Shown here one piece after another: positions 1,419-37,110 of a DNA stretch of 42,281 bases. Numbering within the stretch: position 1 is the stretch's first letter; each line of letters begins with the position of its first letter. Under the pieces are notes generated by a model. That model was given only the letters and a program-made list of their open reading frames with translations, had not been told where the DNA came from and ran no database searches. Both the position numbers and the translations under genes were made by a program. The stretch comes from a virus. Taxonomy: Duplodnaviria; Heunggongvirae; Uroviricota; Caudoviricetes. The stretch lies in the IMG/VR virus record IMGVR_UViG_2778261538_000003, one strand, 5' to 3'.

Positions 1419-1733
1419 CTAGAAAATCTGCATAAGGGGGAGAAATCCCCCACCTGTAATAACATAACTACTAAAATTAACACCTTGTTCGCACAACTCC
1501 TCCACCAGCACGACAAGATGCCGCACACTGCGCCCCAGCCGATCCAGCTTCCAGACAACCAGAGTGTCACCTGCCGATAATGTCCTGAGCAGTTTTTTCA
1601 GTCCCGGCCTTTCGGACTTTGTACCGCTTATCTTGTCTTCAAAAAACAGCTCGCATCCTGCACAGTTCAGCGCATTACGTTGTAGATCTGTGTTCTGGTC
1701 ATTTGTTGACACACGTACATAGCCAATAAGCAT
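1419..1733 (-). pseudogene. truncated Gin/Pin/Hin-family DNA invertase (serine recombinase catalytic core only, C-terminal HTH missing)
   Basis: N-terminus MLIGYVRVSTNDQ...GDTLVVWKLDRLGRS matches the resolvase/invertase catalytic motif; ATG at 1733; homology ends near VNFSS and the frame stops after about 104 codons versus roughly 190 expected. Confidence 0.75.
1421..1451 (-). terminator. possible rho-independent terminator (GGGGG-agaaat-CCCCC hairpin then T-rich tract on minus strand)
   Basis: Hairpin at 1436-1451 followed on the minus strand by TTATGCAGATTTTCT; it encodes the non-homologous C-terminal tail of the truncated invertase frame. Confidence 0.35.
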
Positions 1734-1759
1734 AGTGGATCCCTCTGACAAAAGCAGGA

Positions 1760-2257
1760 ATGATGCCATTTGCTCGTTATTTCTGCATTTTCATAAACGT
1801 TGGTTTGGGAGAAGGTGCTCCAGCTATTGGCGTTCCGTTCTTCTGGCCGTCCGCTGCAATGCCAAATACTGTAATCGACAGCTGGTCCAGTATGGTGTTT
1901 TTGAAGTTCAACGGCGCGAAATTCTCTGCCACTGATTATCCTGTGCTGGCGAAAGTATTTCCTTCGCTGGTATTACCTGAAGCCCGCGGTGATTTCATTC
2001 GTATCTGGGATGACGGGCGAGGTGCAGACGGTGGTCGCGAATTATTAAGCTGGCAGGCAGCTACAAACTTTTCTCAGTTTGCCGGGAATATAGGCGAAGG
2101 TGCGGGACACGCAATTAACTTTCATGATGGCATCGCCGGAAATCAGCCAGGATTTTCACGATTTAATTTCACCAGTAACTCTGTGGGTGATGGTGTGAAT
2201 TTTGTTGCTGTCAGACCGCGAAATATTGCATTTAACTTTCTGGTGAGGGCTAAATAA
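1760..2257 (+). CDS. alternative tail-fibre C-terminal segment (silent cassette of an invertible segment; no own start)
   Basis: Frame carries IFINVGLGEG...VPFFWP, parallel to IFGFPVGQTG...FPLPFP in the expressed fibre gene on the other strand; followed directly by a tail-fibre assembly gene. Confidence 0.55.
   Translation: MMPFARYFCIFINVGLGEGAPAIGVPFFWPSAAMPNTVIDSWSSMVFLKFNGAKFSATDYPVLAKVFPSLVLPEARGDFIRIWDDGRGADGGRELLSWQAATNFSQFAGNIGEGAGHAINFHDGIAGNQPGFSRFNFTSNSVGDGVNFVAVRPRNIAFNFLVRAK
1788..1813. other. hix/gix-like 26-bp inversion crossover site (TTTTCATAAACG-TT-GGTTTGGGAGAA)
   Basis: Two 12-bp half-sites ending in AAACC-type sequence around a 2-bp core, resembling hixL as recalled; sits at the junction of the silent tail-fibre cassette next to the invertase. 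Confidence 0.5.
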
Positions 2258-2850
2258 TGAAACCTGTTTTTGATGAAAATGGGCTGGCTACAGTGCCGGG
2301 CGATATGCGTTGTTTTTATTATAATGCAGTAACGTATGAATATACCGGCTGGTCTGATGAATATATTAATACTGGCGTAAGTATACCCGCCTGTTCCACT
2401 GGTATTGACCCGGGCGAAAACATTCCGGGAAAAGTGGCAGTATTTACGGGTAAGGGATGGAGCCATGAAGAAGACCATCGCAATGAGACCGTTTACTCAA
2501 CTGAAAATGGCGCAGCTGTTACAGTGGATTATATCGGTGCCATCAAAGACGGTTATGTCACGATTTCACCGTTAACGCCATACGATAAATGGGATGGTGA
2601 GAAATGGGTGACAGACACTGAGGCACAACACAGTGCCGCAGTAGACGCGGCAGAAGCACAGCGCCAGTCACTGATTGATGCAGCAATGGCTTCCATTAGT
2701 CTGATTCAGCTGAAATTACAGGCCGGGCGGAAACTGACGCAGGCAGAAACAACCCGACTTAACGTCGTGCTGGATTACATTGACGCGGTGACGGCAACAG
2801 ATACCAGCACCGCGCCTGATGTCATCTGGCCTGAGCTGCCGGAGGCGTAG
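2257..2850 (+). CDS. tail fibre assembly protein (Tfa/U'-like, alternative copy)
   Basis: 197 aa ending ...TSTAPDVIWPELPEA, the typical Tfa C-terminus; position after the alternative fibre segment. Confidence 0.8.
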   Translation: MKPVFDENGLATVPGDMRCFYYNAVTYEYTGWSDEYINTGVSIPACSTGIDPGENIPGKVAVFTGKGWSHEEDHRNETVYSTENGAAVTVDYIGAIKDGYVTISPLTPYDKWDGEKWVTDTEAQHSAAVDAAEAQRQSLIDAAMASISLIQLKLQAGRKLTQAETTRLNVVLDYIDAVTATDTSTAPDVIWPELPEA

Positions 2851-3265
2851 GCCATTCAATATCGGGTGCTGTTGACGTATCAACACGCATCAGCAGCACA
2901 CGGTATTTCTTCCATTGGGTGAGAGTTGAAGTTTCTTCATCAGTTGCGATACCAGCATCAACAGCATCCTGACGCCAGGATATTTCACTGTCAGCTTTTG
3001 CACGAAATGTGGCTTTCATGTTTTCTGCATCTGATATTTTCTGTTCTGGTGAAAGCGGCGGCTCATCAACCCATGCAAGGGTCCCTGAAACCATTCCCAG
3101 CATTTTTCCTGTTGGCTTATTTCCCCCATTAAATCTGACAGCATCCTCATCGCTGATTTCAATACCATCCTGCGGCCATGTCCCCTCCTTGATATAACTT
3201 TCATATAGCGCTGCGTTGTAGATTGCATTTTCGGACGGGCTGTAAACACTTTTAACTTTATTCAT
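2822..3265 (-). CDS. tail fibre assembly protein (Tfa/U-like, expressed orientation)
   Basis: 147 aa ending ...VDTSTAPDIEWPTPPA; immediately downstream of the minus-strand tail-fibre gene. Confidence 0.8.
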   Translation of the reverse strand: MNKVKSVYSPSENAIYNAALYESYIKEGTWPQDGIEISDEDAVRFNGGNKPTGKMLGMVSGTLAWVDEPPLSPEQKISDAENMKATFRAKADSEISWRQDAVDAGIATDEETSTLTQWKKYRVLLMRVDTSTAPDIEWPTPPAAQAR

Positions 3266-5874: not shown

Positions 5875-6227
5875 TACGCCTCCGATGTAACAGTCGTTAT
5901 TCCATAAAGAGTGTCGATTTCAGCGGAAAACATGACACGTCGGGTCGTGGTATCCAGCGTCGTATTGAAAGAGAGGATTGATTTAACGCCCTGCGTTTCG
6001 AGGATGCGCTTACGGATCGCCAGGTTGTAGGTTTCCGGCTTCTGCTTACCGAGTACGGACTGGATCCACGGAGTCCCCTCGGTGGTGTCGAGAAACCATT
6101 GCCCATACCACAATTCGAATCGCGTTTTTACCGCCTGCGCCACGGCCTCCGGTGAGTTAATCAGCCAGGTGTCATCACCGCTGCCAAAGGTGTAATCGCC
6201 ATCGGCGTCTTCACGTCTGTATCGCAT
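5874..6227 (-). CDS. small baseplate protein (gpW/gp25-like position)
   Basis: 117 aa; stop/start overlap with the flanking baseplate genes. Confidence 0.45.
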   Translation of the reverse strand: MRYRREDADGDYTFGSGDDTWLINSPEAVAQAVKTRFELWYGQWFLDTTEGTPWIQSVLGKQKPETYNLAIRKRILETQGVKSILSFNTTLDTTTRRVMFSAEIDTLYGITTVTSEA

Positions 6228-6979
6228 CAGTTTACCCCGTCGGTACTGCTTCCACCGCGCTGAACACCACCATGAGTGTGCGTATCATCGATTGGCTTGC
6301 CGTTAGCCTTCACGCTCCCCAAAAACTCAACAGCACCAGTGATTTTTGAAGCCACACCAGAAACCACAGACCCCACCATGCCCCCCATCCAGGTTAACAG
6401 GCCATGAATGGTTACTTTCTCAGAAAAATCAGCCAGGGGGGCAACCACATCAAGCCCCCCCGGAGCGACAATTTTAATTTTCCTGGTATCAGGATTAAGC
6501 TCAAAATAGGTGCTGCCGTCGTCACTACGCAACTGTGTGGCACTGGTATTAATACCGCTAATCTTCCTAGCCTGCGACTGGGGACCGACAATACAAAACG
6601 CATCCGATAAATCATGCATTCTGTCATCAACCGTCTCCTGTATCCCGCCGCTCTGCCACCAGAAATCAATACAACGATCGGCAAAAACGACAAGACACTC
6701 ATCCCCAGCTTTTACCGGAAAAGTCAACGTACAGCCTCCGCCGCGCGGGAATACCACTGGCACATCCACCAGCAATGGGTAATTTTTGGTAATGCGGTTA
6801 CCGTCGTTATCCTTTTCAACTGACCGGATAGCTGGCTGCACAACCGCCGTCACCGCGTCAGGATCGAATGACTGAATAATGCCAGGCAAGGCGACACGGA
6901 TCTGGTTCTTTGTTGTTTCCCGTTCAGATTTAAATGTTTCGGCAAGATCGCCACTGCGGGTCTGGTCAGTTACTGCCAT
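6227..6979 (-). CDS. baseplate assembly/spike protein (gpV-like position)
   Basis: 250 aa with Gly-rich C-terminus; first gene after the cargo cassette in the baseplate block. Confidence 0.5.
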   Translation of the reverse strand: MAVTDQTRSGDLAETFKSERETTKNQIRVALPGIIQSFDPDAVTAVVQPAIRSVEKDNDGNRITKNYPLLVDVPVVFPRGGGCTLTFPVKAGDECLVVFADRCIDFWWQSGGIQETVDDRMHDLSDAFCIVGPQSQARKISGINTSATQLRSDDGSTYFELNPDTRKIKIVAPGGLDVVAPLADFSEKVTIHGLLTWMGGMVGSVVSGVASKITGAVEFLGSVKANGKPIDDTHTHGGVQRGGSSTDGVN

Positions 6980-6990
6980 TGGTAGGCTCC

Positions 6991-7013
6991 AAAAAGCAAA
7001 AAACCCGCCGGGT
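6991..7013 (-). terminator. possible terminator downstream of the tail-module cargo cassette
   Basis: Short GC hairpin (ACCC-GGC-GGGT) followed by TTTTTTGCTTTTT on the minus strand; weak stem. Confidence 0.3.
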
Positions 7014-7039
7014 GGCAGGTTTTATCTCATGAAGAATGA

Positions 7040-7552
7040 CTATCGGTGGATAGTATTAAAGTATTCAGAAAGCTGATTATCAGTTATCAAACACAACTGC
7101 ATCAAATAAATAGAGTATTTCAATAACTTTTCATCACGAACGGGGGCGGGACGTAAATACTTCCCGCCGTGAAAGAGATTATTTCTTATATACGGGATCT
7201 GCTTTAATGCTTCAGCAAGAGAATGAGGTTCGATTGGAGGTTTATCCTCCCACGAAAAATCATGCCTCTGCTGCTTCACAGGTTGCTGACATAGATACTC
7301 AACTGCCCTATCGACATTTCTATTTCCAGTAGGATATAAAGGCCGCGTATCATCAGTAGCGTAGCGGCTCCAGTCAGCACCGATTAGATAATTTCTACGA
7401 TCAGTTTTTTTGAAATTAATTCTTTTTAACGCATATTCGAAACGCGAAAAATAATTAAAAAACCTTATAACAAGAGTAATATCAATTCCGCCGAGAAGTT
7501 CCTGAAAGTCAGGGTCTTGAAATGAATTCAAAGGATCATCATCAACTGTCAC
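7040..7552 (-). CDS. hypothetical protein with a HEPN-like R-x4-H motif (cargo gene in tail operon)
   Basis: 170 aa, AT-rich; contains IRNNLFHGG; start overlaps the upstream gene by 4 bp. Confidence 0.5.
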   Translation of the reverse strand: MTVDDDPLNSFQDPDFQELLGGIDITLVIRFFNYFSRFEYALKRINFKKTDRRNYLIGADWSRYATDDTRPLYPTGNRNVDRAVEYLCQQPVKQQRHDFSWEDKPPIEPHSLAEALKQIPYIRNNLFHGGKYLRPAPVRDEKLLKYSIYLMQLCLITDNQLSEYFNTIHR

Positions 7553-7884
7553 TTGCTGCTCACTTTTTTACACGGGAAAGATCCAATGATTTTCGGCGCG
7601 TCCATGCTGTTCTGCAGCAGCTGGACGTTCAGGAAAGCTTTTCCGTTACGTTTCACAAACTCAAAGCCGTAATTGTTACCATCACGGGAAGGCATCAGGC
7701 CCATGTCCATTTTCATGTTTGAATAGTCACCATCTTTTCCCAGAAATTTTATCTTCTGTGATGTGACAGTTTCACCGTTAATAACAGTCATTCCGTCACC
7801 GGTCATCGTGTAGTTGCCGCACTGAATTGCAGCCATCGCCGGAGCAGTAACCATCATAACTAACGCCAAACATAACCGTTTCAT
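7549..7884 (-). CDS. secreted/periplasmic hypothetical protein (cargo gene in tail operon)
   Basis: 111 aa; N-terminus MKRLCLALVMMVTAPAMA-AIQ reads as a Sec signal peptide with AxA cleavage site; start overlaps the stop of the upstream tail gene. Confidence 0.55.
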   Translation of the reverse strand: MKRLCLALVMMVTAPAMAAIQCGNYTMTGDGMTVINGETVTSQKIKFLGKDGDYSNMKMDMGLMPSRDGNNYGFEFVKRNGKAFLNVQLLQNSMDAPKIIGSFPCKKVSSK

Positions 7885-8948
7885 TAAAGCCCTCTTTCCC
7901 TCGCTGATGAGGAAACAAGATCCGCCGCGCCACGCGCTTCACACATCATATCCATGTACCACGCCTGGCCCCTTGTGTCGCCAGTGTACATAATCCCGCG
8001 CACAATATAAACGCCATCCGTTGCGATGCTGGCAGGCTGCGATGTGGTGCCGCTGAGCGTGATATTTCCGTCCGTGTTCTGGTCGGTGATCTGACCACCA
8101 GCCATCGCAATATCGTTGTTCGACAACGCGGTACGATAGACGGAAGCCTGATCCAGCTGAATGAGCCCGTTAACCCGGATGTTCGGATTAATAAGCGCGC
8201 GGACGTTTACGCCGTTACCGATAGTCTGCTGCGGCATTCCAATAAGCCCGGTAGCGCTGTTGAGCACAATCGCTTCGTGAACATATTCGTTATTCACCAC
8301 CATCTGGCGCTGACCGTCCACGAATTGCCATGTTGCGCCACATTGTCCGGCTACGTTATCCATTAGATGCCGCGTCATGCCAAAGAGTACCCGCCCCCGG
8401 GGGAATACAGTAGCAGGCATTTCAGGCGTCAGGCCTTCGGTCGCGCCTTTGGCTTCGAAGTCTTTCATCAGCGCACGGTTCACATCAGCGACCGTGTAAC
8501 CGGCAGCCAGCGTCTGTGAGGTTATACTGGTAGCAAAAGCCAGATCAGTATCTGCTGCCTGAATCAGGACGTAGGTATCAACCGGACTGTCTTTTCCTGT
8601 GACCGAGTAGCGAATTTCACCGCTGAAAATCAGTCCGTAGTTGCGGCCATCTCTCTGGCCCACGTCCGCCGCGTCAACTTCCCGCACGGTCCCTACGTCG
8701 CTTGCTGACACCTCCGGCGCGATACCGTCGTAACCGGCAATCAGACGCACTTTCGAAAACTCCTGCCCGGTAATTCGGTTCACAGTATCTGCCGAGAGGT
8801 TATAAATTTTGATAGTCCCTACCCGGGACGCGCTGCTGATGTTGAACCAGTCGATCGTAAAGGTGACTTTGAAATCACTTAGCTCAATTCCCTGACCGTT
8901 CCCGTCCACAAGCTGCAGCTCGAAATGTCTCATCCAGTTCTGTGACAT
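7884..8948 (-). CDS. tail/baseplate hub protein (gpD/XkdQ-like position)
   Basis: 354 aa; gene order after tape measure in a sheath-tube tail operon. Confidence 0.45.
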   Translation of the reverse strand: MSQNWMRHFELQLVDGNGQGIELSDFKVTFTIDWFNISSASRVGTIKIYNLSADTVNRITGQEFSKVRLIAGYDGIAPEVSASDVGTVREVDAADVGQRDGRNYGLIFSGEIRYSVTGKDSPVDTYVLIQAADTDLAFATSITSQTLAAGYTVADVNRALMKDFEAKGATEGLTPEMPATVFPRGRVLFGMTRHLMDNVAGQCGATWQFVDGQRQMVVNNEYVHEAIVLNSATGLIGMPQQTIGNGVNVRALINPNIRVNGLIQLDQASVYRTALSNNDIAMAGGQITDQNTDGNITLSGTTSQPASIATDGVYIVRGIMYTGDTRGQAWYMDMMCEARGAADLVSSSARERGL

Positions 8949-8950
8949 GC

Positions 8951-9253
8951 TTACTCCGTTGATACCAGTAAATGGCTGCGACCGCCCAGGTCAGTTTTTG
9001 TGGGGTAATCCTGTGTGTTGTCATCACAGACCACCACCAGCTTAAAACCAAGCCCCATACAGGCGTACTGCGCCAGCAGGTCAGCACCAGTGACGAGAGG
9101 AATACCGGAGATTACCGGCTCCCCTCTGTCGTTCTGCAGGTCCATAATCCAGTACAGATCGCGCCATATGATGCTAATCCGCCAGGTGACACCACCCAGG
9201 ACGATGCTGAACTGCTGGTTGTCCGCTGTCAGCGGAATTTCCTGAATTGTCAT
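8951..9253 (-). CDS. tail protein
   Basis: 100-aa ORF coupled to neighbours in the tail operon. Confidence 0.4.
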   Translation of the reverse strand: MTIQEIPLTADNQQFSIVLGGVTWRISIIWRDLYWIMDLQNDRGEPVISGIPLVTGADLLAQYACMGLGFKLVVVCDDNTQDYPTKTDLGGRSHLLVSTE

Positions 9254-9840
9254 TAGCCGCCCCCCAGTAATGACGCCACGTTACCCGTGATGCTTTTCAG
9301 CAGTGAAGTATCTGGAGGCTTTGTGGTTTTGTTGCCGCTGTTCTGTACCGCCGACGTGCTGGCCCCTTCCTTCATGTTGGTTTTATCCGCGACGGTAATC
9401 TGCTGTGTCCGGGAGATAATGACCTCCCTCAGGGTGAGGACGGCGGACAGGACGTTTTCGGTTGTCTTGTCCGTCGTCACTTCCAGCGCCCGGATCAACA
9501 TGTTGCTGTACAGCCGTTTACCGGTTACCACATCGAAGGGGATACGGCTTTCCTGCAGACCCAGTAGCTCCTGATACGTCTGCTGAGGACTCAGGCCGAG
9601 CAGGCTGGTAGCCGTCAGGTTACTGGCAAAATCCAGCAATGCGCCGCCACCGGCGAAACCAACCTCCATCACCACTTCTGACGGTTTTTTATAGGCATGA
9701 TCAGCGACAGCGGCCCCGACCTCTACCGGATGCTCTGTTATTTCAAGCATATCTGTATGCTTCTCTGAAATAACAACACTGGGAACAATCATTCCTATTT
9801 TTCTGCTCTGCTGATGAAAAAGTGTAGAGAGAATATCCAC
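9253..9840 (-). CDS. tail protein
   Basis: 195-aa ORF immediately downstream of the tape measure gene. Confidence 0.4.
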   Translation of the reverse strand: MDILSTLFHQQSRKIGMIVPSVVISEKHTDMLEITEHPVEVGAAVADHAYKKPSEVVMEVGFAGGGALLDFASNLTATSLLGLSPQQTYQELLGLQESRIPFDVVTGKRLYSNMLIRALEVTTDKTTENVLSAVLTLREVIISRTQQITVADKTNMKEGASTSAVQNSGNKTTKPPDTSLLKSITGNVASLLGGG

Positions 9841-11825
9841 TAACCCACCCTCACCTGATTACTTCGCATGACCTGAGCATTTGCAGACTGTTGCCGACGT
9901 GCAACCTCATTACCGACAGCGTGCGGATCTCCGCCACCGTAAATGTGGTAGGTATTTTGCTGGTTAACCTCTGTCACTTTGCCACTAATTCCCGCCACGG
10001 CAGCCTTATTAATCAGCTCTCGAGAATAGATATTTCTTCCATTCTCATGCTGGATAATGCTGCTCATCAATGCTGACATGGTTTGCGGATCGCTCATATT
10101 CAGGGCAGCCCGGGGATCCACTCCCAGTCGTTGCGATACAGCCCTGATATACGCTGTTGTGTTGTTATTATCAGACGCAGGTGCCCAGGTAGAGATAATT
10201 TTCTCCACACTGTTTATTCCCCGTCCGGCGTACAGCATTAACTGACGAGCAAGAGCCCGTAATCCATCAAAGGCAGTTTCAAATCTGGCAAATCGCCCGC
10301 CCGGGCGTTCAAGAGAAGCCCCTGCCTGACCAGCAAAATTAAGGTTTCCCGGATTGTTATTCCGTTCTCCTCGTTTCGTAGCCTGTGCATATTGTTCCGG
10401 CTCAGCACCTGGAATATCTGACTGAATATTTGCGCCTTTTACGGTATGAGGATTACGACCAAAATCGGTATCAATGCCAAGCCAGCGCAATGAATCTCCA
10501 ATATTTTGTTTCGTGTAATCCCAGGATGACTTCGCACTGGCACCAATATTTTCGCGATCAGAGTACAAATACGCAGCATAAGCCATCCAGCCTTTTAACC
10601 ACGGCGGGACCGGCAAACCTGATATTTTCCCGAAAGCCCCCAGAACCCTGGATACCCAGACACCCGCGATGAATGTACCAAGGATTTCCAGTGCATTTTG
10701 CCAGCCGCCAACACCATCTTTTAGTTCCAGAAGGTGATCACGAAGCCAGGTGATCGCATCCTTCGCTTTATCTATTGCCGGTTGCCATTTTTCCCAGTCG
10801 ATAAGACTGTTACCGCCTTCTTTCCATGTTTTGTAGTCTTCCCACAAGAGACCGAGAGCCACGATCAGACCGGTAATCAGCCCTATAGGTGACATCCAGA
10901 AAGTAGAGTTAAGTATCCGCATGGCGACAACCAGACCGCCGATAACCTCTATCAGGGTTTTCGTTTCGGCATCCAGTTTCCCCCACCACTCGATGATATC
11001 TCCGACACCATCGACTATCCGAAATGCTACCCGCCCGACTATCTCACCCAGCCAGAGGATCCCCTTTATGACCTTTGTGATGGTGACTTCAATTTTGGGA
11101 AAATTTTCAATTATCTTTTTGCGCAGGTTATCAATCTGCCCCGCCAGTCCGTCCGCAAGATTCGATCCGATTTTGTCCCGCGCCATCCTGGCCATTTCAC
11201 CGAGCGATTTCAGCGAGGTCATAAACCGGTTTGACGATAAGGCAGCCTGATCGGCATTAAATCCGATCGCTTTCACCATTTCTGAATACTGAGCGCTGAA
11301 CTGCCCCACTCCGCGACGCATAGCCATCAGGGTATTTTCGTCAATGCCCAGCATCTGCGCATACTGGTTAGCCCGGTAATACGGCATGCTGCTGAGTTTC
11401 TGTCCAACGCCCGTAAAGATAGCAGCCATGTCACGCATGTTACCGCTGGCATCACGGGTCTGTACGCCCAGGCGATTCAGAAAGCCTTCTGCTCCGGGAT
11501 TGTTACGAATAAACCGGGAGAGGCTTTCCAGAGAAGATCGCGCAGCGTCCACACTGCCGCCAACCTGCGAAACCGCATAGCCAATAGACTGAATTCCCTG
11601 GACCGTCGCGCCGGTGCGCTGTGACGCCCAGTAAAGATTATCCAGGCCGGAGGCGATCTTAGCCGTGAAGGCCACCACGGACAGCGCAGCCCCTTCAACA
11701 GCCAGCCCCATTTTGATGACATTTGCAGTTGTACCGGCGAGGACAGAACCGAACTTTTTCGCTCCTGCATCATCCACACGGAAGCCAAGCGAGACGAGGA
11801 AATCTTTAATAGTTTCAGCGTTCAT
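9840..11825 (-). CDS. tail tape measure protein
   Basis: About 660 aa, Ala/Gly-rich with predicted helical and TM-like segments; lies after the chaperone pair. ATG at 11825 with GGAG/AGGA upstream is preferred over the TTG at 11846. Confidence 0.7.
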   Translation of the reverse strand: MNAETIKDFLVSLGFRVDDAGAKKFGSVLAGTTANVIKMGLAVEGAALSVVAFTAKIASGLDNLYWASQRTGATVQGIQSIGYAVSQVGGSVDAARSSLESLSRFIRNNPGAEGFLNRLGVQTRDASGNMRDMAAIFTGVGQKLSSMPYYRANQYAQMLGIDENTLMAMRRGVGQFSAQYSEMVKAIGFNADQAALSSNRFMTSLKSLGEMARMARDKIGSNLADGLAGQIDNLRKKIIENFPKIEVTITKVIKGILWLGEIVGRVAFRIVDGVGDIIEWWGKLDAETKTLIEVIGGLVVAMRILNSTFWMSPIGLITGLIVALGLLWEDYKTWKEGGNSLIDWEKWQPAIDKAKDAITWLRDHLLELKDGVGGWQNALEILGTFIAGVWVSRVLGAFGKISGLPVPPWLKGWMAYAAYLYSDRENIGASAKSSWDYTKQNIGDSLRWLGIDTDFGRNPHTVKGANIQSDIPGAEPEQYAQATKRGERNNNPGNLNFAGQAGASLERPGGRFARFETAFDGLRALARQLMLYAGRGINSVEKIISTWAPASDNNNTTAYIRAVSQRLGVDPRAALNMSDPQTMSALMSSIIQHENGRNIYSRELINKAAVAGISGKVTEVNQQNTYHIYGGGDPHAVGNEVARRQQSANAQVMRSNQVRVG

Positions 11826-12057
11826 TATCCTCTCTCCATTTCTCAATGCGTCGCTGGTTATCCGCTTTTACCGCCAGATGGTCATTCAAGAGAGCAATGT
11901 CATACAAATCGACAGAGCCATCTTTAAGTGCTGTATAAGGAATTAACCCGGCGTCAACCGGATTGAGAAGGTAGGACAGCCCGTCCGGCAGGCTGTTAAA
12001 CGTCAGCCCTGTTGCAGGCTCTGCGTCGTGCTGGTAAGGGGTGTAGGCAAAAAATTT
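11815..12057 (-). CDS. -1 frameshift extension of the tail assembly chaperone (GT-like product)
   Basis: Slippery heptamer A_AAT_TTT at 12051-12057 in the zero frame; the -1 frame then stays open for about 80 codons to a TGA at 11815 that overlaps the tape measure start. Confidence 0.5.
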   Translation of the reverse strand, partial: KFFAYTPYQHDAEPATGLTFNSLPDGLSYLLNPVDAGLIPYTALKDGSVDLYDIALLNDHLAVKADNQRRIEKWREDNER

Positions 12058-25070: not shown

Positions 25071-25493
25071 TTATGCCGCCGGGCAGCTCCTTCGCAAAGT
25101 CCTGATAGCCTTAGGCTTTGACTGAACTGCTTGATCCATTTCCAGAACCACGTCCAGCATAGCCAGGCAGCCGTCGATAAATCCCTCTGCAGCCTGGAGC
25201 CTCTTCAGAACTTGAGTGTGTGATACGCCGAGCTTCACACCCATAGCCCTCACAGGCATCGCCTGGATGTAATGCCACTCAAGGAGCGTACACAGGTACG
25301 GATCTTTTTTCTTCAGGCAGTTCATAGCAGAGCTGATGATCAGACCGTCATTGTCACTGCACTTCAGCCGCCCGGCTTGCGTTGCAGGTAGCAGATTCTT
25401 AAATCCAGCGGAAACAGGTGGATAGTAGACACTGCAACCTTCGCTCGCAGCCCAGCCCCCCCATCGCTCTAAAACCAGTCGAATATCACGCAT
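25071..25493 (-). CDS. late gene antiterminator Q
   Basis: N-terminus MRDIRLVLERWGGWAA and C-terminal ...KRLQAAEGFIDGCLAMLDVVLEMD resemble QuuD-type Q proteins as recalled; immediately upstream of the lysis cassette. Confidence 0.8.
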   Translation of the reverse strand: MRDIRLVLERWGGWAASEGCSVYYPPVSAGFKNLLPATQAGRLKCSDNDGLIISSAMNCLKKKDPYLCTLLEWHYIQAMPVRAMGVKLGVSHTQVLKRLQAAEGFIDGCLAMLDVVLEMDQAVQSKPKAIRTLRRSCPAA

Positions 25494-36348: not shown

Positions 36349-37110
36349 ATGCAGGAACTAACTGAAATGCCGATCAACTATCCATACCCGAGAGAATCTT
36401 TTCCTGACTTTTTGAGGGAGTGTGGGTTCACCAATTTTTCCCACGAACAGCGTGAGACTTATGACTGCTATCGTTTAACGAATGGCGTAATTGTTAACCT
36501 TTACACCACCCGGACCATTCAGTTTCAAGGGAACCCTCAAGAACGTCCCAATGTTGAAACTGCAATAATGTCCCATTTAGGAACGCCCCCCACGGCAACA
36601 CCACTAGCCGTAGAACAGCCATCTGAGCTTCCCAAAAAGATATTCATTGTTCACGGCCATGACCATACTGCAAAGGAACAACTTGAGCTAATCCTTCATA
36701 AACTTGGATTACCAGACCATTTCATTTTGCAGAATACGGGAGGGACTGGACTCACCATTATTGAAGAGCTTGAACGTGAAATTGGGCAAGGACAAACTGC
36801 TACTCGTTTCGGGATTGTTCTTTTGACACCTGATGATATGGGATACTCAAAGCGCGCCGGTGAAGCAGAAATCCAACCCCGCGCAAGACAGAACGTTGTA
36901 CTCGAGATGGGTATGCTTCTTTCGTCCTTAGGGCGCAGCAATGTAGCAATCCTTCAGAAACAGCACCTAGAACAGCCTTCTGATGCTAACGGGATTTTGT
37001 ATCTGAATTTCAACGACCATGTACGTGAAACAGTTCCTCGTCTAGTGCAACGGTTACAAAATTCTGGTTTCGAATTTACACAAGCTCAAATAGCTAACGC
37101 TTCCTCGTAA
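36349..37110 (+). CDS. TIR-like domain protein (COG4271-type) with unknown N-terminal domain
   Basis: C-terminal half carries KIFIVHGHD ... FGIVLLTPDD ... RARQNVVLEMGML ... VAIL, matching the TIR-like nucleotide-binding fold as recalled; own terminator downstream. Confidence 0.6.
   Translation: MQELTEMPINYPYPRESFPDFLRECGFTNFSHEQRETYDCYRLTNGVIVNLYTTRTIQFQGNPQERPNVETAIMSHLGTPPTATPLAVEQPSELPKKIFIVHGHDHTAKEQLELILHKLGLPDHFILQNTGGTGLTIIEELEREIGQGQTATRFGIVLLTPDDMGYSKRAGEAEIQPRARQNVVLEMGMLLSSLGRSNVAILQKQHLEQPSDANGILYLNFNDHVRETVPRLVQRLQNSGFEFTQAQIANASS

Follow-up and report, generated by a model that had tools for sequence, protein, structure and literature searches.

What occupies the junction between the baseplate hub and spike genes of a temperate phage, and how much of it belongs to the tail operon in which it sits? 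We addressed this question in a 42,281-nucleotide stretch of DNA from a tailed phage (Caudoviricetes; IMG/VR record IMGVR_UViG_2778261538_000003), hereafter the window, where two small open reading frames (ORFs) on the minus strand, encoding proteins of 111 and 170 amino acids (aa), lie between these two conserved tail genes. Both ORFs had been correctly placed by an earlier interpretation made from the letters alone (the sequence-only reading), which took them for a two-gene, low-GC cassette coding for a secreted protein and a HEPN-motif protein and followed by a weak terminator. Comparison with related phages does not support a cassette of two genes. In SEN34-like (Brunovirus-type) temperate myophages, the hub and spike genes enclose an accessory locus whose edges are fixed: the 111-aa gene in its first position is near-fixed backbone, not cargo, and its second position is a hypervariable cargo slot closed by a terminator hairpin at the spike ribosome-binding site. 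In the window this slot holds the 170-aa gene, whose role is most likely anti-phage. Our best explanation, held with slightly more confidence than doubt, is that its product is a solo HEPN abortive-infection ribonuclease (RNase), as predicted from its sequence and family, residing in a prophage cargo hotspot. In order of transcription, the features of the junction are:

7884-8948, minus strand: baseplate hub gene, 354 aa (PHROG 196 'baseplate hub', E=2.3e-88), the left anchor, transcriptionally upstream
7549-7884, minus strand: 111-aa exported-protein gene with an ATG start (PHROG 3443, E=2.7e-53; STY1065/STY2022 family)
7831-7884, minus strand: codons of its signal peptide, residues 1-18, with a predicted signal-peptidase-I site between AMA and AIQC and no lipobox
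7023-7561 (about), minus strand: exchanged cargo segment, without DNA homology to otherwise collinear relatives
7040-7552, minus strand: 170-aa HEPN-like protein gene with a GTG start, overlapping the 111-aa stop as GTGA
7424-7438, minus strand: codons of E39-Y-A-L-K43, the upstream HEPN motif E-x3-[KR]
7169-7186, minus strand: codons of R123-N-N-L-F-H128, the predicted catalytic Rx4H motif
6990-7023, minus strand: intrinsic-terminator-like hairpin (stem-loop 7000-7023, 10-bp stem) and T-run, from a terminator scan
6987-6990, minus strand: spike ribosome-binding site GGAG directly past the T-run, read from the sequence and alignment A5 (below)
6227-6979, minus strand: gpV-type baseplate spike gene, 250 aa (Pfam PF18352, spike N-terminal domain, 5e-44; GpV Apex motif)

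When the junction was compared by blastn with 13 collinear relatives, homology broke at ~7558-7571 and at ~7010-7037, so only the 170-aa gene and a few flanking bases are exchanged. On the left the slot begins in the final four codons of the 111-aa gene, and on the right it ends at the terminator hairpin. Complete Escherichia coli genomes matched the region in 103 of 5426 cases, with query coverage of at least 80% in only 25 of the 103; among the partial matches listed, coverage ran only from ~7561-7565 onward, which is the end of the 111-aa gene.

Two sets of loci define what is constant and what varies at the junction. The first was fetched with the 111-aa protein and comprised 33 genome loci together with phage and E. 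coli records (42 mixed loci). Here the 111-aa gene always directly followed the hub gene, and the gap to the spike gene ranged from 0 to 4.1 kb. The second, which avoids the circularity of such a search, consisted of 80 IMG/VR contigs fetched by the hub protein alone (identity of at least 96%), 74 of them with both hub and spike genes. The 111-aa gene follows the hub in 65 of these 74 loci. The remaining nine carry a different exported protein in the same place; the 111-aa gene is replaced by a gene for a 153/158-aa signal-peptide protein or a 241-aa lipoprotein with the lipobox LTSC (L138:5446-5907, L152:6056-6532, L139:6068-6793 and L165:3948-4673). In every case, then, the product of the first position is exported.

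Of the two genes, only the 170-aa gene is foreign in composition, with a GC content of 0.384 and a GC content at third codon positions (GC3) of 0.339. The low GC ascribed to the pair does not extend to the 111-aa gene (GC 0.452; GC3 0.545), which falls in its neighbours' GC3 range of 0.51-0.64. The sequence-only reading had expected the insert to come and go among related tail operons and not to prove a conserved part of the tail module or of the virion. The 170-aa gene does vary in this way. The 111-aa gene is near-fixed and conserved in most related tail modules, although its product matches no virion protein, and its signal peptide makes a virion role unlikely.

These distributions bear on the possibility that the exported protein and the HEPN-like protein form one system, inserted together and working together. 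The ORFs are translationally coupled by the GTGA overlap, as had been proposed, and co-transcribed, and the same pair is found in Enterobacter-like, Pantoea and other prophages. However, the 111-aa gene is also seen next to empty slots and alongside at least 15 other cargo architectures, its GC3 resembles that of the backbone, and the DNA breakpoint lies within its last four codons. The HEPN-like family adjoins it only in SEN34-type prophage loci (six) and is found at more than 100 other loci without it. Furthermore, one protein is exported and the other cytoplasmic. The distribution data contradict a joint system, which we regard as very improbable. A toxin-antitoxin pairing of the two genes was also considered and rejected, since one product is exported and the two distributions are independent.

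Among the 65 close relatives with the 111-aa gene, we observed at least 16 cargo architectures, and the slot was empty in four loci. Cargo is generally low in GC. The commonest, present in 28 of the 65 loci, is a protein of ~250 aa together with a 142-aa HEPN-T-like protein. DUF4282 proteins occupy the slot in 10 loci and a 194-aa protein with a YafO toxin in eight. Further cargo includes membrane proteins, an exported tRNA_anti-like OB-fold protein, Phd with Doc, DUF2335 or DUF4236, and a membrane-anchored Mrr_cat nuclease that also matches the ZorD and type IV restriction models of PADLOC. Pfam E-values for these assignments were 9e-18 (YafO), 6.5e-8 (Phd), 5e-11 (Fic/Doc) and 3e-27 (Mrr_cat). 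The 170-aa gene itself is a rare allele of the slot, found in one of 65 loci in the IMG/VR sample, and homologues of its product with 50-55% identity lie in the same slot in Pantoea, Enterobacter-like and other prophages. The presence of YafO, Phd/Doc, an Mrr-like nuclease and a second HEPN-like protein in relatives agrees with the moron-type position within a late operon that the sequence-only reading had recognized.

The commonest pair deserves a separate description. In L008:1183-2342 and 27 other IMG/VR loci (e.g. L125), a variable helical protein of 243-276 aa is paired with the 142-aa protein. The latter has a HEPN-T-like N-terminus (RAYYGMYH) and reaches the PADLOC HEPN_IX model at only E=0.009; the pair is otherwise unannotated. 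Aligning the family profile of the 170-aa protein with this 142-aa cargo by hhalign revealed no relationship.

The hairpin that closes the slot had been called a weak terminator following the insert. With its 10-bp stem and T-run it is a good terminator, conserved in the presence of other cargo, and thus part of the backbone. The 60-nt spacer that holds it folds at -19.3 kcal/mol. To describe it across relatives, we used alignment A5, which contains 23 distinct sequences (the window and 22 related loci). In the aligned cargo-bearing loci and in one empty locus, the 90 nt before the spike start contain a GC-rich hairpin, a run of 5-8 T and GGAG. A 9-pair stem is paired in 85% of the cells of A5, against 37-58% in slid registers, and five of the nine pairs show compensatory change on both sides. 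Stem variants include CCCGCC/GGCGGG, CCCAC/GTGGG, CCTGC/GCAGG, CCCAGC/GCTGGG and GGCCGC/GTGGCC. The terminator is a conserved backbone element and not part of the insert. The hairpin is kept, whatever the cargo, in prophages of Escherichia, Salmonella, Klebsiella, Yersinia, Photorhabdus, Serratia and Pantoea.

The T-run leads straight into the spike ribosome-binding site and leaves no space where a promoter could fit, so the spike gene must be expressed by read-through. A candidate for the factor responsible lies in the window:

25071-25493, minus strand: Q antiterminator gene (Pfam Phage_antitermQ, E=8e-41; annotation of the identical phage ON470579)

The Q gene is upstream on the same strand and is followed by holin, endolysin, terminase, head and tail genes; because of this arrangement, the structural genes most likely form one Q-dependent late transcript. 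The simplest interpretation, which we infer from this layout, is classically lambdoid: Q-modified transcription ignores the terminator, and a lysogen transcript made without Q stops there. In that case the terminator would end lysogen transcripts, and Q-modified late transcription would read through it into the spike gene.

Morons of lambdoid phages include HK97 gp15 in the tail operon, and lambda bor and lom. Like these, the 170-aa gene is an extra gene of a late operon with deviant composition, a downstream terminator and, presumably, late read-through by Q. It differs from them in that no promoter of its own was detected in the 170-aa allele and in that the terminator belongs to the backbone. 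By presence and absence among collinear relatives and by deviant composition, the 170-aa gene behaves like a moron and the 111-aa gene does not. The junction also resembles the P2/P4 hotspots (PMC9122126), where conserved phage flanks enclose variable, low-GC cargo of toxin, nuclease or defence type that is swapped among close relatives. Unlike those hotspots, it belongs to another lineage and another position, the hub-spike junction of a lambdoid-regulated myophage, and it has a near-fixed exported-protein gene before the slot and a conserved terminator abutting the next structural gene after it. In the searchable literature we came across no earlier account of the hotspot, nor of the STY1065 and 170-aa families.

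We then assessed the 170-aa protein as an RNase. The sequence-only reading had rested on an R-x4-H motif within IRNNLFHGG (residues 122-130). The motif is present and the HEPN hallmarks are real, but R-x4-H alone means little, as it occurs in 29% of shuffles of this protein; its weight comes from its invariance across diverse homologues. A word-indexed search found only 27 clusters of relatives; profile searching against 1.84 billion representative proteins raised this to 2392 at E≤0.001, with 606 of them at E≤1e-30 (~2400 clusters in the family, counted at 50% identity). Nearly all members stand alone at 155-180 aa. A few members (e.g. the metagenomic relatives P0167 and P0175) are fusions with DUF6884 in front; this YaaA-like domain has been proposed to bind nucleic acids and flip their bases (PMC11701544). 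In 93 diverse homologues with ~30% identity to the query, E39, R123, N125, H128, G129 and K131 are invariant, and R37, K43, W61, P91, Q95, W101, N124 and R139 are conserved in at least 90%. R123 and H128 are also invariant in a smaller set of 25 homologues. Homologues begin at the equivalent residue, which supports the GTG start.

The HEPN superfamily is defined by R-x4-6-H with a polar N, D or H straight after the R, an upstream acidic residue in E-x3-[KR], and a motif that ends a core helix and begins the loop to the last core helix, with an insert preceding it (PMC3710099). All four features are found in the 170-aa protein, the placement being read from a predicted structure. In the AlphaFold2 model (mean predicted local distance difference test score, pLDDT, of 91), a helix at 25-44 carries E39-YAL-K43 and is followed by an insert at 45-111, a helix at 112-127 closed by RNNLFH, a loop at 128-136 and a helix at 137-157. 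Matches of family members to existing models are sub-threshold; the most recurrent are to HEPN models, namely Abi_2, HEPN_Apea, HEPN_Swt1, Cas13a, CARF-HEPN and Csx1. A weak PDB match to a CRISPR-associated protein aligned at RN..HGG, and the UniRef label of the exact protein is 'Apea-like HEPN domain-containing protein'. Structural matches were weak overall; a Foldseek search of the model against PDB returned nothing, the PDB single-sequence search gave noise, and hhalign of the family profile with a HEPN_AbiV protein encoded beside one member gave no relationship. The family has no Pfam model, and no experimental work on it was found in the literature. Taken together, these findings make the 170-aa protein a probable member of the HEPN superfamily, from a clade that lacks a curated model.

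The chance occurrence of R-x4-H in shuffles would suit a non-catalytic helical protein, such as a nucleic-acid binder or assembly factor, with only a superficial likeness to HEPN. Against this, E-x3-K and RN-x3-H are kept across a family of ~30% identity and are correctly placed in the model, and HEPN domains that lack catalysis typically lose these residues (PMC3710099). We consider a non-catalytic protein improbable.

The genomic surroundings of the family provide a second line of evidence. Across 106 loci, no neighbouring gene family was common beyond closely related prophages, suggesting that the protein works alone or with non-adjacent partners. One member resides in an island with HEPN_AbiV, TIR_2, RNase_T and Mrr-helicase genes, next to DUF3987 and excisionase genes. 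Others lie beside a 1257-aa STAND NTPase or after a pair of XRE and M78-peptidase genes. In the Klebsiella siphophage ST101-KPC2phi6.1, a member occupies a different late-operon position. In all, the family is present in 29 IMG/VR contigs. Informative contexts are few, and they fit a mobile, defence-associated single-gene effector.

One recurrent setting of the family is of interest in its own right. At L069:6531-10056, and likewise at L070, L071 and L083, the neighbours of a family member include a phage-type integrase and a Ski2/Hel308-like helicase. The best PDB matches of this helicase are 9wh1_B (4e-58), AbpB 8zue (1e-20) and HamB (5e-12). A 313-aa protein encoded next to the helicase was checked as a candidate Hachiman HamA and had no PDB hit. 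The integrase/helicase/313-aa locus may be an AbpAB- or Hachiman-like system.

The lack of a conserved neighbour is also relevant to the possibility that the 170-aa gene acts selfishly, as a toxin or addiction element with no anti-phage benefit to phage or host. The HEPN fold is common among toxins (PMC3710099), and the same slot in relatives is occupied by Phd/Doc and by YafO preceded by a 194-aa protein. Nevertheless, no candidate antitoxin gene lies next to the 170-aa gene, the 106 loci share no conserved neighbour, and a free toxin could not be maintained without an antitoxin. The gene likewise has no adjacent minimal nucleotidyltransferase gene of the kind that marks HEPN-MNT type II toxin-antitoxin systems, its neighbours being the exported-protein gene and the spike gene. 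An addiction element is thus a poor candidate to explain the locus, and we give it little credence.

If the 170-aa protein is a solo HEPN RNase, how might it act? HEPN RNases cut RNA without metal, through a composite site made from two R-x-H motifs at a dimer interface (PMC3710099). HepS ('HEPN solo'), an abortive-infection protein of the Salmonella prophage Gifsy-1 with the motif R100, N101 and H105, forms an oligomer that holds the site inactive until a phage tail protein opens it; tRNA anticodon loops are then cut and infection aborts (PMC13043305). ApeA follows a similar course, with a site that is inactive in the oligomer and opened by deoxydinucleotides, again leading to cleavage of tRNA anticodon loops and abortion of infection (bioRxiv 10.64898/2026.01.26.701840). 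Like HepS, the 170-aa protein is a single small HEPN-type protein of an enterobacterial temperate phage, encoded in an accessory position without a partner gene and bearing RN-x3-H. It has no detectable homology to HepS, and its gene sits in the baseplate operon rather than in the replication/antirepressor region. With ApeA it would share the working principle of single-gene HEPN defence, as well as the UniRef label. The resemblance does not extend to architecture: ApeA has ~580 residues, with N-terminal, Mid and HEPN domains and an inter-domain ligand pocket, and the 170-aa protein is a single bare domain. The 170-aa protein could not be placed with ApeA: it had no PADLOC ApeA hit, and within the family all matches to ApeA models were sub-threshold (Pfam HEPN_Apea in 2/93 members; PADLOC Cas13-ApeA in one member). 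By analogy with these proteins, we propose that the 170-aa protein would dimerise or oligomerise to join two Rx4H motifs into a metal-independent RNase site, would be held inactive until a competing phage provides a trigger, and would then cut tRNA or other RNA, aborting infection as the prophage-encoded HepS does.

Several observations weigh against an abortive-infection RNase. The 170-aa protein has no above-threshold hit in Pfam, NCBIfam or PADLOC, and no antitoxin or regulator that could restrain any toxicity is evident. Many alleles of the slot are exported or membrane proteins without a known link to defence, and the defence contexts of the family rest on few loci. Expression is a further difficulty. 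No promoter above chance was found upstream of the 170-aa gene (6 sites, with 3.3 +/- 2.0 expected), and translation of the gene is coupled to that of late genes. It follows its upstream neighbour without an intergenic gap, and the sole promoter candidate (7775-7746, 9/12 matches) falls within the 111-aa gene; in many other alleles a gap of 100-200 nt after the 111-aa gene could accommodate one. Given this coupling and the lack of a promoter, expression of the 170-aa gene in the lysogen is only hypothetical, and the gene may have a part in lytic growth.

Such a role is the main rival to the abortive-infection reading. The RNase would be made late with the tail proteins and would degrade host or competitor RNA, or counter a host defence, without protecting the lysogen. 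The chain of coupling, from the 170-aa gene to the 111-aa gene and from there to the hub gene in a Q-dependent late operon, speaks for it, as does the absence of a separate promoter above chance. Yet the 170-aa gene is dispensable, being swapped for unrelated genes in close relatives, and the slot also holds toxin-antitoxin and nuclease genes typical of prophage defence cargo. The conserved terminator at the end of the slot makes most sense if non-antiterminated transcripts arise there, and the family is also found outside phages, in islands with defence-type genes. We therefore consider a purely lytic role unlikely and continue to favour abortive infection.

The 111-aa protein calls for a separate explanation. 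Its gene starts within the hub stop codon (TAATG). The Sec signal peptide predicted for it in the sequence-only reading was recovered: from sequence features and hydropathy, the N-terminus, MKRLCLALVMMVTAPAMA followed by AIQC, has an n-region, a hydrophobic core and an A-x-A site. The AlphaFold2 model places a helix at the N-terminus, and UniRef homologues carry the name 'Secreted protein'. We considered a lipoprotein and rejected it, as the residues preceding C22 make no lipobox. RefSeq WP_000824896.1, which bears the 'STY1065/STY2022 family' name, is 99% identical. Homologues form 410 clusters in Enterobacterales, with a highly conserved mature domain that includes C22 and C105, and identity across genera is 57-97%, where the hub genes are only ~73-75% identical at the DNA level. 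Searches of Pfam, NCBIfam (release 20) and PADLOC gave no hit save a meaningless NCBIfam match at E=0.24, the PDB sequence search gave noise, and no informative sequence or fold match emerged.

Envelope-acting superinfection-exclusion proteins are known to be encoded next to tail genes, as with Llp of T5, Cor of phi80 and N15, and Sp of T4. The 111-aa protein is similarly small and exported, is encoded beside genes of the puncturing apparatus and is replaceable by other exported proteins or lipoproteins. It differs from these in showing no sequence or fold similarity to them and in being co-translated with late genes. Superinfection exclusion at the envelope is the most likely single function that we can suggest, an assignment we make tentatively and at somewhat less than even confidence; the protein would then act separately from the HEPN-like protein. 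In Serratia aquatilis (L034:5321-9442), five extra, tandem and diverged copies of the 111-aa gene accompany an IS256-type transposase in a 4.1-kb slot. These copies are a local expansion and look like diversifying paralogues.

A more ambitious model would treat the whole junction as a locus devoted to immunity in two layers and kept in genetic linkage with the puncturing device. The first-position proteins, whether of the 111-aa family, its tandem paralogues or the alternative types (signal-peptide protein or lipoprotein), would stop related tails at the periplasmic step of penetration. In the second position, a solo HEPN RNase would be activated by foreign baseplate or tail proteins, as HepS is by the J protein, and placement between hub and spike would link the defence gene to a self tail variant that fails to trigger the RNase. 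Cargo would be swapped by recombination anchored in the terminator and in the 3' end of the 111-aa gene. We regard this full scheme as a long shot.

The locus represents a further prophage cargo hotspot and a further solo-HEPN family, both of already known kinds. As a well-bounded and easily mined cargo slot in widespread enterobacterial prophages, it is a place to seek new defence genes: the hub gene is found on more than 570 IMG/VR contigs, and most slot alleles have no known function. Should the 170-aa protein prove to be an RNase activated by a trigger, few single-gene abortive-infection effectors would be smaller. For annotation, the 111-aa exported protein should be treated as the product of a conserved backbone gene rather than a moron, and the terminator as a conserved part of the operon.

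Over 3.3 kb, three temperate E. coli myophages (vB_EcoM-689R2, -606R2 and -611R5) match the window with 100% identity, and it is also related to Salmonella phage SEN34 (genus Brunovirus), Yersinia phage YP3 and Klebsiella phage Mulock. A literature search returned nothing on vB_EcoM-689R2 or STY1065, and the SEN34 paper contains no virion proteomics. The hub gene is seen in all related loci, and its product has a sub-threshold match to Pfam E217_GP41. The spike gene, the conserved right anchor of the locus, carries the RefSeq name 'membrane-puncturing spike protein'. Upstream of the hub, the tail operon comprises:

9840-11846, minus strand: tape-measure protein gene with a lytic transglycosylase domain, first in the tail-operon order
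9253-9840, minus strand: Dit-like protein gene, after the tape measure
8951-9253, minus strand: gene for a Pam3-gp18-like plug, before the hub

Past the spike, the order continues with a sheath initiator (RefSeq name of an identical gene), Baseplate_J and DUF2612.

Two further regions of the window are of note. In the early region, a plus-strand gene at 36349-37110 encodes a 253-aa protein that is named 'TIR-like domain-containing protein' in the identical phage record and matches Cap12 weakly in the PDB (7un8, E=4e-4); the gene is possibly the phage's second of defence type. At ~1419-3265, a short DNA-invertase ORF lies with tail-fibre and tail-fibre-assembly genes in opposite orientations (ON470579 annotation), which suggests an invertible host-range segment.

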